A stretch of DNA of 64,000 nucleotides from an uncultured bacterium (GCA_963719425.1 OY970382.1:455100-519099); one strand, 5' to 3'. Shown: positions 2,413-5,365, counted from the stretch's first letter. Made by a program: numbers and translations. The notes: a model not told the origin generated them from the sequence alone.

Positions 2413-2487
2413 TGGCGGGGGCGCCAGGATTCGAACCTGGAAGTCAGGATTTGGAGTCCCGCAGTTTGCCGTTGAGCTTACGCCCCC
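2413..2487 (-). tRNA. tRNA-Trp (anticodon CCA), CCA encoded
   Basis: Reverse complement folds as a cloverleaf: acceptor GGGGGCG/CGCCCCC, anticodon stem CGGGA/TCCTG with loop CTCCAAA, T-arm CCAGG-TTCGAAT-CCTGG; one mismatch in the D-stem. Confidence 0.75.
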
Positions 2488-3152
2488 GTTAAATGTAAAA
2501 ATGCTCTGGCGACAGCCAGCAATTGTCGCGCCAAATCATTGCTGTGATAGCGAACAGTTATACACCCTTGATAATTCTCCCGGATTCTCCTCCCCGTATT
2601 TGGCTTTCGACAAGATTTGATGAACTGCTGCTTATCAATACTAGTTATTTTTGACCAAAAATCAAGCTGTTTCTGCGCCGAATGGTAAGAATGAATATGC
2701 ACGCAAGGATGGAATTTTCCTTCATTAAGAACAAAAGATTGGCGTAGTAAACGGAGAAAAACCTTCACTAGTGTCGGATCTGAATTGGTGAATGCCATCC
2801 CGCTTTTCGGATTCTTGTTCCCTTCGCACCAGAACATCATTGCGCATATTATTTTTTTGTAATTAGGCCTCCGCTGAATCTCCTCGAGCGCCGCCTGAAA
2901 ATATTTTTCTCCAATAATCATTGTTTGGACGTGCCTTTTGGCGGCGCCGATAAATTGTCCTTGTTTAATGAGGCTGAGCAGTCGCGCTTGAGCTCGCTTG
3001 TCCAATATGATATCGCGCAGCCAAAGAGAAACCGTATTCGCGGGAACGCGTAAAAAACGACCGATTTCCTTTATGGAACGACCTTTCTGGCGAAGTCTGA
3101 TTGCTTCCTGCCGCATAACAGAAGAATATGCCACAAGATCATCATGGCACAC
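2478..3152 (-). CDS. HTH-domain protein of unknown function (paralog A of a pair flanking rpmG and an intron-containing tRNA)
   Basis: N-terminal resolvase/sigma-r4-like HTH (GRSIKEIGRFLRVPANTVSLWLRD). Shares colinear motifs with the ORF at 3712..4311 (FWCEGNK/LYWGEGTK; NSDPTLVKVF/NTDPALIKIF; LDFW; GxxTVxYH...L). No confident family assignment. Confidence 0.5.
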   Translation of the reverse strand: MCHDDLVAYSSVMRQEAIRLRQKGRSIKEIGRFLRVPANTVSLWLRDIILDKRAQARLLSLIKQGQFIGAAKRHVQTMIIGEKYFQAALEEIQRRPNYKKIICAMMFWCEGNKNPKSGMAFTNSDPTLVKVFLRLLRQSFVLNEGKFHPCVHIHSYHSAQKQLDFWSKITSIDKQQFIKSCRKPNTGRRIRENYQGCITVRYHSNDLARQLLAVARAFLHLTGA

Positions 3153-3187: not shown

Positions 3188-3367
3188 CTATTTTCCGGTA
3201 ATCCTCGCCTCCTTGTGCACCGTTTGTTTGCGGCACCACTTGCAAAATTTCTTGAACTCCAGCTTCCGCTCCACGGTCTTCTTGTTCTTGGTCGTGTAAT
3301 AATTCCGCCGCTTGCAAACTGAACAGCGGAGGGTGATCAATTTGTCGGCACGTTTCACTTTCGCCAT
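3188..3367 (-). CDS. rpmG: 50S ribosomal protein L33
   Basis: [59 protein letters not shown]: L33 zinc-ribbon signature. Internal Met chosen; the upstream 18 codons of the tracked ORF are likely spurious. Confidence 0.8.
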
Positions 3368-3435
3368 GGGAACTATTCTAGCGGATTGCGGAAAAATTCG
3401 CAAATCGCGCTCGCGTGCCACCTTGAACCACTTTG

Positions 3436-3721
3436 AGCCGATGGTCGGATTTGAACCGACGACCTACTCCTTCATCGCTACCTCAACTTCGCAACGCTTA
3501 TATGAGGATTAGACTGTATCTTGCGCATACCGCTTGTGGCGGTCGAGCGCCCCTTGTCAGTCGTTCGGGCGGGAAGAATGATTTTTCTCGCCACGGTCTT
3601 GGCCATCGCTCCACGCACTGGCTTTTAACCGTAATTCGGGATTCACGGGCGGGTTTCCCTGCCCGTGGGCATGACCCTTCGGTCCACCATGGAGTTGCTC
3701 TGCCAGCTGAGCTACATCGGC
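3436..3721 (-). tRNA. tRNA-Thr (anticodon GGU) interrupted by a ~213-nt group-I-like intron between anticodon-loop positions 36 and 37
   Basis: 5' exon (rc of 3686..3721) = GCCGATGTAGCTCAGCTGGCAGAGCAACTCCATGGT. 3' exon (rc of 3436..3472) = AAGGAGTAGGTCGTCGGTTCAAATCCGACCATCGGCT. Together these form a perfect 73-nt cloverleaf (acceptor GCCGATG/CATCGGC, anticodon stem ACTCC/GGAGT, loop AUGGUAA). Confidence 0.65.
3473..3685 (-). other. Putative group I self-splicing intron within tRNA-Thr(GGU)
   Basis: The 5' exon ends in U. The intron begins GGACCGAAGGGUCAUGCC, where GGGUCAUG can pair with exon CAUGGU to form P1 with a U.G pair at the splice site. A P7-like pairing GACUG...CAGUC and an S-element-like AAGAUACAGUCUAAUCC are present. 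The intron ends ...UAGCGAUG (omega G). It is too short to encode a protein. Confidence 0.55.
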
Positions 3722-4311
3722 ATTTTCTCTTTTGAAACCAAGTCAACCAATAAGTCCCGCAACTTCTTATTGTGATACATCACAGTCATAACTCCGTATT
3801 GGCTCTTTCTTCTATAGGTACCCAAGTGGCCGGACTTTGTGACGATTGGTTTATTGATTTGGTCCCTCTCTATATTAAGTTTTTTAATCCAAAAGTCCAG
3901 AGCTTCCTCTGTGTCAATATCGTTGAACAATTGCAGACCAAATTTTAGATCTTCCTTGCGAATGTAAAATATCTTGATAAGGAAACTGATAAATATTTTA
4001 ATAAGCGCCGGATCGGTGTTACCAAGACGAACCGATGACAAATTGGCCTTAGTCCCTTCTCCCCAATAAAGACCGATACCCAACCCAAATAGTTTCGCCT
4101 TCTCCGCGGTATTGGGCTTATGAAAGCGGAATGGGTCGCCGTTTGGATTCCTCTTTACATACGTCGCTTCGTTGCGAGTCCGTCTAGGAATTTGATATTT
4201 TTCCATCCAATACGAAATCGTATGCAAAGAGCAATTCAAGATAGTGGCAATATCTTGCATAGATTTATTCTCACCTTTGTAGAGTTTGACCAAAACGGGC
4301 TTTTTGATCAC
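3712..4311 (-). CDS. HTH-domain protein of unknown function (paralog B of the 2478..3152 ORF)
   Basis: N-terminal HTH (MQDIATILNCSLHTISYWMEKY), then 'GLGIGLYWGEGTK' (weakly reminiscent of a LAGLIDADG-type G-[DE]-G motif) and conserved blocks shared with paralog A. The stop overlaps the 5' end of the intron-containing tRNA by ~10 nt. Confidence 0.5.
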   Translation of the reverse strand: MIKKPVLVKLYKGENKSMQDIATILNCSLHTISYWMEKYQIPRRTRNEATYVKRNPNGDPFRFHKPNTAEKAKLFGLGIGLYWGEGTKANLSSVRLGNTDPALIKIFISFLIKIFYIRKEDLKFGLQLFNDIDTEEALDFWIKKLNIERDQINKPIVTKSGHLGTYRRKSQYGVMTVMYHNKKLRDLLVDLVSKEKMPM

Positions 4312-4786
4312 GTCTCAACTTTACCAAAAAGACATTAAAAAATTGTTAAATATTGATTGGGAGTATACTGATGGTATGGAACTCCAAGTCGGCGTCAAGG
4401 CTCTTCTTCAAAATAAGAGCGGCAAGTACCTCCTCGTACGCCGCTCATCCGAAAAATATCCGGAGGTTGGCGCACAGTGGGACATCGTCGGCGGGAGAAT
4501 CAATCCGGGCACCCCACTCATTGATAACCTGAAAAGGGAAATCAAAGAAGAGGTGAATTTGGATCTGGTTGAGGCGCCGAAACTCATTGCGGCTCAAGAT
4601 ATTTTAAGGGTTCCCGGCAGACACGTCGTCAGGTTGACCTATCTGGGCAAGATTGACGGACAACCAAAACTGAACGATGACCATGTAGAGTGTCAATGGT
4701 TCGCCCTGGAAGAAATCAAAAAACTGGATGCTTTGGATATCTATTTCAAAGCGCTCCTTGATGACGGCAAGTTTGATAACGGTTGA
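4286..4786 (+). CDS. NUDIX-family hydrolase (degenerate Nudix box)
   Basis: 'WDIVGGRINPGTPLIDNLKREIKEEVNL' approximates the Nudix signature GX5EX7REUXEEXGU; small (~160 aa). Confidence 0.55.
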   Translation: MTKTGFLITSQLYQKDIKKLLNIDWEYTDGMELQVGVKALLQNKSGKYLLVRRSSEKYPEVGAQWDIVGGRINPGTPLIDNLKREIKEEVNLDLVEAPKLIAAQDILRVPGRHVVRLTYLGKIDGQPKLNDDHVECQWFALEEIKKLDALDIYFKALLDDGKFDNG

Positions 4787-4857
4787 GCCGGAGAGAGGAG
4801 TCGAACCTCCAACCTCTGCTTTACAAAAGCATTGCTCTGCCATTGAGCTACTCCGGC
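4786..4857 (-). tRNA. tRNA-Thr (anticodon UGU)
   Basis: rc = GCCGGAGTAGCTCAATGGCAGAGCAATGCTTTTGTAAAGCAGAGGTTGGAGGTTCGACTCCTCTCTCCGGCT; acceptor GCCGGAG/CTCCGGC, anticodon loop TTTGTAA. Confidence 0.75.
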
Positions 4858-4924
4858 GGCTTTCGCAACCCACCTATATTATAGGACGATAACAGTTCTG
4901 TAAACATGAGTCCCTCTTGAGATG

Positions 4925-4946
4925 GTTCGAATCCTGTCCTGTGCAG
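4925..4946 (-). repeat. Dispersed motif copy, short form (rc CTGCACAGGACAGGATTCGAAC)
   Basis: Member of the 23-27-bp family GTGCAC-NGG-NC(T/A)GGA-(CGATYT)-TCGAAC; sits at the left boundary of cassette A. Resembles a tRNA T-loop/acceptor fragment (GGTTCGAATCC). Confidence 0.6.
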
Positions 4947-5029
4947 GGTCTTTACGTCGTCATTCGATAGTGATACAATATTCTACAGATGAGAGGCGTG
5001 GGACGATCCACAGAAACGAGGTTAAGGCA

Positions 5030-5269
5030 ATGCAAGCATCAAAACAAGAAATCCTCGATCAAGCCATCGAGGAACTCGCTGATCTCAACGTCAACACTTA
5101 CAACAACCTCCGGGCCCGGAACATCGTGACCATTGGGGACGTTGTTAAGCTCACGAGGGATGAGTTGCAGCGAGACACCCCGCAAGCGCGGCGGATGACA
5201 AAGGGAATGCTGGCCGACCTTGAGGGGGGACTTGCCAAGTTGGGCCTCTCCCTCCGGCCCTCGCAGTAA
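5030..5269 (+). CDS. Small stand-alone protein with an RNA polymerase alpha-subunit C-terminal-domain (alpha-CTD/HhH)-like fold
   Basis: 'LADLNVNTYNNLRARNIVTIGDVVKLTRDELQRDTPQARRMTKGMLADLEGGLAKLGLSL' parallels the RpoA CTD 'LSVRSANCLK...IGDLVQ.TE.ELL...N.GKKSL.EIK..L...GLSL'. An AAGG lies 4 nt upstream of the ATG. Confidence 0.5.
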   Translation: MQASKQEILDQAIEELADLNVNTYNNLRARNIVTIGDVVKLTRDELQRDTPQARRMTKGMLADLEGGLAKLGLSLRPSQ

Positions 5270-5365
5270 AACCACGGAAGGCAGGGGTTCGGACACCTCG
5301 TCTGCACTCCTGCCTTTCAAGCCTAAATTCACAAACTCATTGCGAATTGAGGCTTGGAGAGAAGT

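Follow-up and report, generated by a model that had tools for sequence, protein, structure and literature searches.

The element considered here is an intron-split transfer RNA (tRNA) gene, tRNA-Thr(GGU), in 64,000 nt of DNA from an uncultured bacterium (GCA_963719425.1 OY970382.1:455100-519099), a stretch that we call the window. Gene order at the locus is tRNA-Thr(UGU), tRNA-Thr(GGU), rpmG and tRNA-Trp, in agreement with the thr-tRNA/Trp-tRNA/rpmG neighbourhood described in the initial annotation of the window, and the tRNA-Thr(UGU) gene lies 1.1 kb from the split tRNA-Thr(GGU). Every related sequence recovered points to Patescibacteria as the host. We put at about 0.9 the probability that the insert in tRNA-Thr(GGU) is an intact group I intron, belonging to a compact, sequence-divergent subfamily found at position 36/37 of this tRNA mainly in Patescibacteria, that it splices by the group I pathway, and that it is a presence/absence polymorphism linked to a probable homing nuclease gene.

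The split gene is read from the minus strand, as are all intron elements given below. Exon 1 (3686..3721; 36 nt, GCCGAUGUAGCUCAGCUGGCAGAGCAACUCCAUGGU) supplies tRNA nucleotides 1-36, with the anticodon G34 G35 U36 as its last bases according to the tRNA call on the joined exons, and exon 2 (3436..3472; 37 nt, AAGGAGUAGGUCGUCGGUUCAAAUCCGACCAUCGGCU) supplies nucleotides 37-73, the CCA not being encoded. Between tRNA positions 36 and 37 lies an insert of 213 nt (3473..3685; GGACCGAAGG...GGUAGCGAUG), whose two ends read GGACCG...GCGAUG. When the exons are joined, ARAGORN returns tRNA-Thr(ggt) with a perfect cloverleaf, confirming the 73-nt tRNA that had been proposed from the two halves, and in the minimum free energy (MFE) fold of the 286-nt precursor the exon halves pair into all four tRNA arms (z = -3.3 versus shuffles).

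The boundaries of the insert are fixed by close relatives that do not have it. L33 (59 aa, encoded at 3188-3367, just downstream) is matched residue for residue on 11 other contigs, five of which (L001-L005, from peat metagenomes and GCA_049997875.1) were fetched; their dnaE has ~92% DNA identity to that of the window. In all five, tRNA-Thr(GGU) is uninterrupted: the 3' end of exon 1, ...CUCCAUGGU, runs directly into AAGGAG..., the 5' start of exon 2, so that window positions 3686 and 3472 correspond to adjacent bases, and the exon 1 stretch has 94.6% identity to the intron-less allele of L001 (2859-2895). Because the flanking bases differ at each junction, the intron boundaries, 3685-3473, are unambiguous. 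The earlier placement of a 213-nt insert after U36 is base-exact, and close relatives are polymorphic for the presence of the intron. Standard tools handle the gene poorly: the unspliced locus is undetected by default ARAGORN and by the Rfam tRNA model, and ARAGORN in intron mode places an intron at 33/34, giving anticodon AUG and the label His, a 3-nt boundary slip that the intron-less allele rules out.

Since the Rfam group I model does not detect the insert, homologues were gathered with a scan pattern, GAACGACTRA N{20,50} AAGATAYAGTC, taken from two core elements of the window intron and applied to a collection with a single genome for each species. At least 120 related loci were recovered, nearly all of them in metagenome-assembled genomes (MAGs) of Patescibacteria, and 112/120 loci among the matches listed are tRNA-Thr(GGU) genes with an intron at 36/37 (113/121 with the window included). 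Within the listed matches and the window, a terminal G is present in 110 of the 113 resolved introns, and lengths range from 158 to 243 nt. Many family members are called Arg(GCG) or His(GUG) at 34/35 by ARAGORN, again because the boundary is shifted. Aligned with MAFFT, the 109 distinct introns (A1) share a strongly conserved core, UGCCC / UGAAUCCCGAAUAACGGUUAAAG / AAGACCGUGGCG / CGCCCGAACGACUGACAAGGG / AAGAUACAGUCUA / GAGGU...G, joined by hairpins in which the sequence is free to differ while pairing is kept. A covariance model built from 83 members, the window being left out, matches the insert over its full length (3473-3685; 147.4 bits, E 4e-53) and nowhere else in the 64 kb. The window copy agrees with the family in 73/73 columns that are at least 90% conserved among the other 108 introns and has canonical bases in 41/43 helix pairs; it is intact.

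A few pattern matches fall outside Patescibacteria by label. One is a member of the Thr(GGU) intron family in a cultured Bacteroidota isolate, Niastella populi CCTCC AB 208238 (NZ_LWBP01000002.1; L062, 5234-5414, minus strand), where the intron adjoins a tyrosine-recombinase-like ORF (open reading frame; 4264-5331); the others are labelled as Pedobacter or as 'Gammaproteobacteria' MAGs. Splicing experiments would be easy in a cultured host such as N. populi. Among the family members, L014 (3564-3806, 243 nt) has large extra hairpins in an expansion of P5/P6, and L039 (2718-2947) has an insertion of ~40 nt in the P1 extension; to judge from these two, the peripheral loops of Thr(GGU) introns evidently tolerate insertions.

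The structure of the window intron follows the group I plan from its first helix. P1 is formed by the internal guide sequence G16 C17 C18 (3668..3670) and exon bases G34 G35 U36, through the pairs U36.G16, the wobble at the 5' splice site, G35-C17 and G34-C18. The three intron bases are invariant in the 109 introns, and this GGU:GCC helix is present in the unconstrained MFE structure of the whole window precursor and in 96/110 family members folded as isolated segments; covariation in P1 is not possible because the anticodon is fixed. These family-invariant bases replace the guide sequence initially proposed, GGGUCAUG (intron nt 9-16), which was to pair with exon CAUGGU. Intron nt 2-13 instead form a P1-extension hairpin (3673..3684; nt 2-5/10-13, loop GAAG), which is variable in sequence and kept in most members, some being without it.

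P2 (3644..3667; intron nt 19-42) is a hairpin closed by a GAAA tetraloop, with compensatory changes in 9/9 pairs and a GNRA loop in 107/109 introns. The 5' strand of P3, C46-C48 (3638..3640), pairs with G133-G135 (3551-3553) in the P3/P7 pseudoknot; 99.7% of cells are paired, and 3/3 pairs switch between CG and UA. P4 (nt 54-59/88-93), around J4/5 AAAA, together with P5 (64-67/81-84) and J5/4, occupies 3593..3632, with covariation in 4/4 pairs of P5 and no variation in P4, even though P4 lies outside the search pattern. In the P6 hairpin (3568..3592; nt 94-99/113-118) 5/5 pairs covary, for example from GG/CC to CC/GG. The next segment (3551..3567) corresponds to the classical R element and comprises J6/7 CGAAC (119-123), the P7 5' strand GACUG (124-128), J7/3 ACAA and the P3 3' strand GGG (133-135), a stretch that is invariant in the family, partly by design of the pattern. 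It is followed by the P8 hairpin (3523..3550), in which 4/4 pairs covary and whose internal loop resembles a GAAA-tetraloop receptor (..UAUG on the 3' strand), and by J8/7 AAGAUA with the P7 3' strand CAGUC (3512..3522; nt 164-174), the classical S element; the P7 pairs run from G124-C174 through G128-C170. The 3' end (3473..3509) holds P9.0 (A177 U178/A211 U212), the P9 hairpin (179-183/201-205) and the terminal omega-G213 (window 3473). Pairing holds in 96.8% of P9.0 cells, with covariation among GC, AU and GU in both pairs, and in P9 5/5 pairs covary.

The textbook group I consensus has R as ..ACGACUA/G.. and S as AAGAUAUAGUC, which together form P7 and J8/7. In the window the corresponding elements are GAACGACUGA (R) and AAGAUACAGUC (S-like), differing from that consensus by G-C in place of A-U, which is compensatory; at the two degenerate positions of the scan pattern, the matches had G and C only. 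The hallmarks that had been noticed beforehand, namely an exon ending in U, a GACUG/CAGUC P7, the S-like AAGAUACAGUC and a terminal omega-G, are all present, and across more than 100 homologues they show little or no variation.

Comparative evidence for the fold comes from the 109 introns as a set. RNAalifold, given no hints, predicts P2, P4, P5, P6, P7, P8 and P9; P3, being part of the pseudoknot, and P9.0 were added by hand. In the resulting nine helices (43 pairs), 94.6% of 4671 cells are paired, compared with 27-42% after a shift of the partners by 1-3 columns, and changes on both sides occur in 32/43 pairs, values that 0/500 shuffles reach. Every helix has comparative support except the invariant P4 and P7. 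The canonical order P1-P2-P3-P4-P5-P6-P7-P3'-P8-P7'-P9 is recovered along with the P3/P7 pseudoknot, so the failure to fold a P3-P7 core that would have spoken against a group I intron did not occur. The assignment made in the initial annotation is thus upheld by the intron-less allele, the covarying helices in canonical order and the leave-window-out covariance model. An archaeal-type bulge-helix-bulge (BHB) intron, a group II intron and an insertion sequence (IS) element were also considered and have no support, the group I architecture accounting fully for the insert. Rfam matches at the locus to Gl_U4, Termite-leu and S10 leader are at chance level only.

The family also offers a hint of tertiary structure. 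A P8 of the UAYG receptor-like type occurs in 29/42 introns with a GAAA loop in L2 and in 0/67 others (uncorrected for phylogeny), while the introns with GUAA, GCAA or other L2 loops have a plain P8 helix in 67/67 cases (A1 columns 71-74 and 229-272; window 3654-3657 and 3523-3550). This co-variation of L2 type with P8 shape suggests an L2-P8 tertiary contact, which would be of a kind known from compact tRNA group I introns.

From this architecture and standard group I chemistry we infer that the window intron is catalytic. The anticodon G34-G35-U36 would pair with intron G16-C17-C18, the U36.G16 wobble setting the 5' splice site, and the core would consist of two domains, P4-P6 and P3-P7-P8-P9, held by the P3/P7 pseudoknot, with the internal loop of P8 probably receiving the L2 GAAA loop. 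The first attack, after U36, would come from a free guanosine held at the P7 site; G213, placed by the 2-bp P9.0 (A177 U178/A211 U212), would then take over the guanosine site, and the 3'-OH of U36 would attack after G213. U36 would thereby be joined to A37, yielding mature tRNA-Thr(GGU) with the anticodon loop AU-GGU-AA. The product of the neighbouring helix-turn-helix (HTH)-LAGLIDADG gene, most likely a free-standing homing endonuclease, would carry the tRNA locus and its intron into intron-less alleles.

Several points weigh against a self-splicing group I intron and were set against the evidence above. RF00028 (Intron_gpI) gives no match to the window intron at gathering threshold or at E<=10 on 3300-3850, nor at gathering threshold in 16 other family members, so that the group I assignment rests on architecture and not on a curated model; the miss is a limit of model sensitivity, not a defining property of the group I class. 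The homologue set was drawn with a pattern from the window intron, which biases the diversity sampled, and the shuffle control takes no account of phylogeny. P4 and P7 never vary and are thus compatible with the fold but uninformative, the invariance of P7 (not that of P4) being partly imposed by the search pattern. In the literature on these introns we found no splicing experiment on the Thr 36/37 subfamily. Finally, no second tRNA-Thr(GGU) was found in a tRNA scan that covered the 64-kb window only.

The intron class itself has been published. Nakagawa et al. (2026, mSystems; PMC13011429, Table 1) report three complete Patescibacteria genomes (3/95) with an intron at 36/37 of tRNA-Thr(GGU), use the term 'divergent group I introns', which they attribute to Castelle et al. 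(2018), and describe such introns as undetected by RF00028 and ARAGORN and recovered with the tFind model gpI_bact_tRNA.cm. The tFind work (Williams 2020, bioRxiv 10.1101/2020.01.27.920355) had likewise found an intron-split tRNA-Thr(GGU) at 36/37. In the study of Nakagawa et al., splicing was assayed for Asn and Asp 35/36 introns only, and in their tree the Thr introns form a long branch inside the IA clade, not IC (PMC13011429). The window intron shares with their introns the host tRNA, the anticodon and the insertion site, as well as the behaviour of the tools, with an RF00028 miss and an ARAGORN boundary shift and mislabel. A homologue in Candidatus Wolfebacteria GW2011_GWB1_47_1 (CP011209; L059) is labelled Arg(gcg) by ARAGORN, which resembles the ARAGORN label in PMC13011429 for one of its three genomes. 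The window intron is one more member of the published Thr(GGU) 36/37 class, real but already known. The expectation that Thr(GGU) is an unusual host is therefore outdated, since PMC13011429 Table 1 and tFind list it and it accounts for 112/120 loci among the matches listed, and the Rfam Intron_gpI check that had been suggested yields no match even at E<=10, a documented property of the subfamily. What the present analysis adds to Nakagawa et al. is a family far larger than three complete genomes (112/120 loci among the matches listed), explicit covariation support for the secondary structure, and an HTH-LAGLIDADG gene immediately upstream in ~40% of members.

By architecture, the Thr intron family looks like a minimal Azoarcus-type, IC3-like intron. 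In the Michel and Westhof scheme of 1990, subgroup IA is reportedly defined by extra helices, P7.1/P7.2, between P7 and P3'; in the Thr family that interval holds only an invariant 4-nt ACAA between P7 (GACUG) and P3' (GGG), in 109/109 introns. The introns of Azoarcus tRNA-Ile(CAU) and Anabaena tRNA-Leu(UAA) are IC3 introns of ~200-250 nt in the anticodon loop, the Azoarcus intron lying after the third anticodon base and having an L2-P8 contact. Measured against these known structures, the Thr introns are alike in compactness, in their anticodon-loop site, in an exon P1 of ~3 bp with a U.G wobble, in the GNRA loop of P2 and in simple P5, P6, P8 and P9 hairpins, and the pairing of an L2 GAAA loop with a P8 receptor resembles the Azoarcus L2-P8 contact. 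They differ in the host tRNA and in a sequence too divergent for RF00028.

Directly upstream of the split gene lies ORF1 (3712..4311, minus strand), a candidate free-standing homing endonuclease predicted to have an N-terminal HTH and a single LAGLIDADG-fold domain. It ends inside tRNA-Thr(GGU): its last codons, CCG AUG UAG, are tRNA nt 2-10, and the stop codon UAG is nt 8-10. An exact look-up of ORF1 from the upstream GTG start found no match, the gene as called (P0001) starting 17 codons later. The Pfam match of ORF1 covers the N-terminal HTH only; the LAGLIDADG sequence models of Pfam and NCBIfam do not match it, HTH families alone being returned, and a profile search against PDB sequences gives HTH-type matches only. 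The AlphaFold model (25 homologues; predicted local distance difference test, pLDDT, 88.7) is confident, and ORF1 has the predicted LAGLIDADG alpha-beta fold, its motif helix ending in a conserved acidic residue; this helix ends in the invariant W83, E85 and G86. The HTH matches HTH modules of phage HNH homing endonucleases. ORF1 belongs to a family of 1562 proteins of Patescibacteria, all unnamed or labelled 'HTH domain'.

The association of ORF1 with tRNA-Thr(GGU) is seen from both sides. In 42/102 intron loci (those with enough upstream sequence) the tRNA gene is immediately preceded by an ORF1 homologue on the same strand, and, starting from the protein, tRNA-Thr(GGU) begins ~0 nt after the ORF1 homologue in 69/70 metagenome loci. 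Among these 69 linked tRNA genes, 51 have the intron and 18 do not, so that intron frequency beside ORF1 is 74%, compared with 3/95 complete Patescibacteria genomes (PMC13011429, Table 1), although the ORF1-linked loci are non-independent samples, having been selected for their resemblance to the ORF of a locus that has the intron. The identical-L33 relatives have neither ORF1 nor the intron, and the NUDIX gene between the two tRNA-Thr genes (window 4286-4786, plus strand; L001 2426-2836) is in the opposite orientation there and only 31% identical; by sequence comparison, the whole segment between the two tRNA-Thr genes is a different cassette in those relatives. In another relative, L126, ORF1 is present together with an intron of 215 nt, and the whole cassette is 83% identical to that of the window. 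Patchy presence with a replaced flank is the pattern that homing-endonuclease cassettes produce, but ordinary recombination between conserved tRNA genes could produce it too. A comparison of anticodon stem-loops for 'immunity' substitutions, between intron-less tRNA-Thr(GGU) beside ORF1 and spliced intron-containing tRNA-Thr(GGU), gave no consistent difference. Because ORF1 also adjoins intron-less tRNA-Thr(GGU), the place where the intron is inserted is not necessarily its target. ORF1 is probably a free-standing homing endonuclease, and its association with tRNA-Thr(GGU) appears to be new relative to the literature on these introns.

A second gene of this kind stands at the next tRNA. ORF2 (2478-3152, minus strand) is an HTH/LAGLIDADG-like paralogue of ORF1, with 29% identity over the C-terminal LAGLIDADG-like domain, and ends at nt 8-10 (UAA) of tRNA-Trp (2413-2487, minus strand). 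Its family counts 133 proteins, and in 8/8 loci (from 3 family members) an intron-less tRNA-Trp(CCA) follows, its start lying -10 to +5 nt from the end of the ORF2-family gene. The tRNA-Trp of the window is markedly unlike that of ORF2-less relatives. The reading frames of ORF1 and ORF2 both extend across the 5' acceptor strand of their tRNA (3712-3721 and 2478-2487, minus strand) to stops, UAG and UAA, at tRNA nt 8-10, and the mRNA would consequently lose its stop codon when RNase P cleaves the precursor. Beyond tRNA-Trp, the ~575 nt up to the fn3/PG-binding gene (1837-2412) have no counterpart in L001-L005 or L126, no Rfam match and no convincing ORF.

Taken together with ORF2, ORF1 raises a wider proposal, to which we give slightly less than even odds: that tRNA group I introns of Patescibacteria, seemingly immobile for want of an internal ORF, are mobilised by free-standing HTH-LAGLIDADG homing endonucleases, in paralogous families each devoted to one tRNA (ORF1 to Thr(GGU), ORF2 to Trp(CCA)) and flush with its 5' end, the Thr intron having spread by collaborative (trans) homing or co-conversion. 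In the work of Nakagawa et al. endonuclease genes were sought only inside introns, mobility and horizontal transfer were judged limited, and flanking genes are unmentioned (PMC13011429); the proposal, if true, would contradict that inference of limited horizontal transfer. Collaborative or trans homing by free-standing endonucleases is described in phages (Hausner et al. 2014, PMC3984707), and the present case is alike in having an ORF-less intron with a nuclease-fold gene right beside the interrupted gene. It is alike also in the intron-less, ORF-less alleles of close relatives; here, in contrast to the phage systems, the setting is a cellular, reduced-genome bacterium, the interrupted gene encodes a tRNA, and the predicted nuclease combines LAGLIDADG with an HTH. 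Phage T4 SegB is a free-standing GIY-YIG homing endonuclease encoded in the T4 tRNA cluster, where it promotes inheritance of its own tRNA region. ORF1 resembles it as a free-standing (here candidate) endonuclease gene among tRNA genes, and differs in that the families have a LAGLIDADG fold, are each tied to one tRNA species and take their stop codon from tRNA nt 8-10.

The nuclease interpretation of ORF1 has to be weighed against the possibility that it is a domesticated, WhiA-like DNA-binding LAGLIDADG regulator of the tRNA-Thr/rpmG unit, its link to the intron being incidental. We regard this as unlikely, though deserving serious consideration. A regulator of that kind fits poorly with the patchy occurrence of ORF1 among identical-L33 genomes, where the flanking NUDIX gene is replaced as well, and with a paralogous family that behaves alike at tRNA-Trp; nor would it be expected from the invariant E85 of the motif, from an N-terminal HTH that matches HTH modules of phage HNH homing endonucleases, or from an intron frequency of 74% beside ORF1 against 3/95 genomes overall.

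A less probable alternative, which we rate as quite improbable, grants the group I architecture but holds that the intron does not splice unaided and that the neighbouring LAGLIDADG protein is its maturase. Several organellar LAGLIDADG proteins are maturases for group I introns, so this activity is established for the protein class; the intron is compact and sequence-divergent, and ORF1 homologues stand directly upstream in 42/102 intron loci, with 51 of 69 ORF1-linked tRNA-Thr(GGU) genes containing the intron. The same counts, however, leave ~60/102 intron loci without an upstream ORF1 homologue, so most introns must splice without ORF1 in cis, and place 18 of the 69 ORF1 genes next to an intron-less tRNA-Thr(GGU), where a dedicated maturase would be needless. 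E85 of the LAGLIDADG motif is invariant, as expected of an active nuclease, and the intron RNA has suggested tertiary contacts of its own, both of which speak against a maturase role.

A dead tRNA gene is a very improbable reading of the locus. In that case the insertion would be decayed or unrelated and would never be excised, and another tRNA-Thr would take over decoding. Standard tools do miss the intron, the search for other tRNA-Thr genes covered the window only, and tRNA-Thr(UGU) lies just 1.1 kb away. Yet neither exon is damaged, and both closely match the functional allele of relatives; the insert retains 73/73 conserved core positions and 41/43 helix pairs; and more than 100 species-level genomes keep the same split gene with compensatory substitutions, a state that only selection on the RNA fold can maintain.

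An intact group I intron beside a probable homing endonuclease gene has consequences of two kinds. The intron itself matters mainly for annotation, because default ARAGORN and the Rfam tRNA and Intron_gpI models all miss the split gene and tRNA-Thr(GGU) would be counted as absent from a genome of this kind; the covariation-supported structure of the Thr family could seed a proper covariance model. With the intron class already published, the flanking tRNA-specific LAGLIDADG-fold genes are the part most worth attention. If the ORF1 family is a nuclease family, it would explain how ORF-less introns move between tiny genomes, and cellular organisms would then provide a case of free-standing homing endonucleases specific to tRNA genes.

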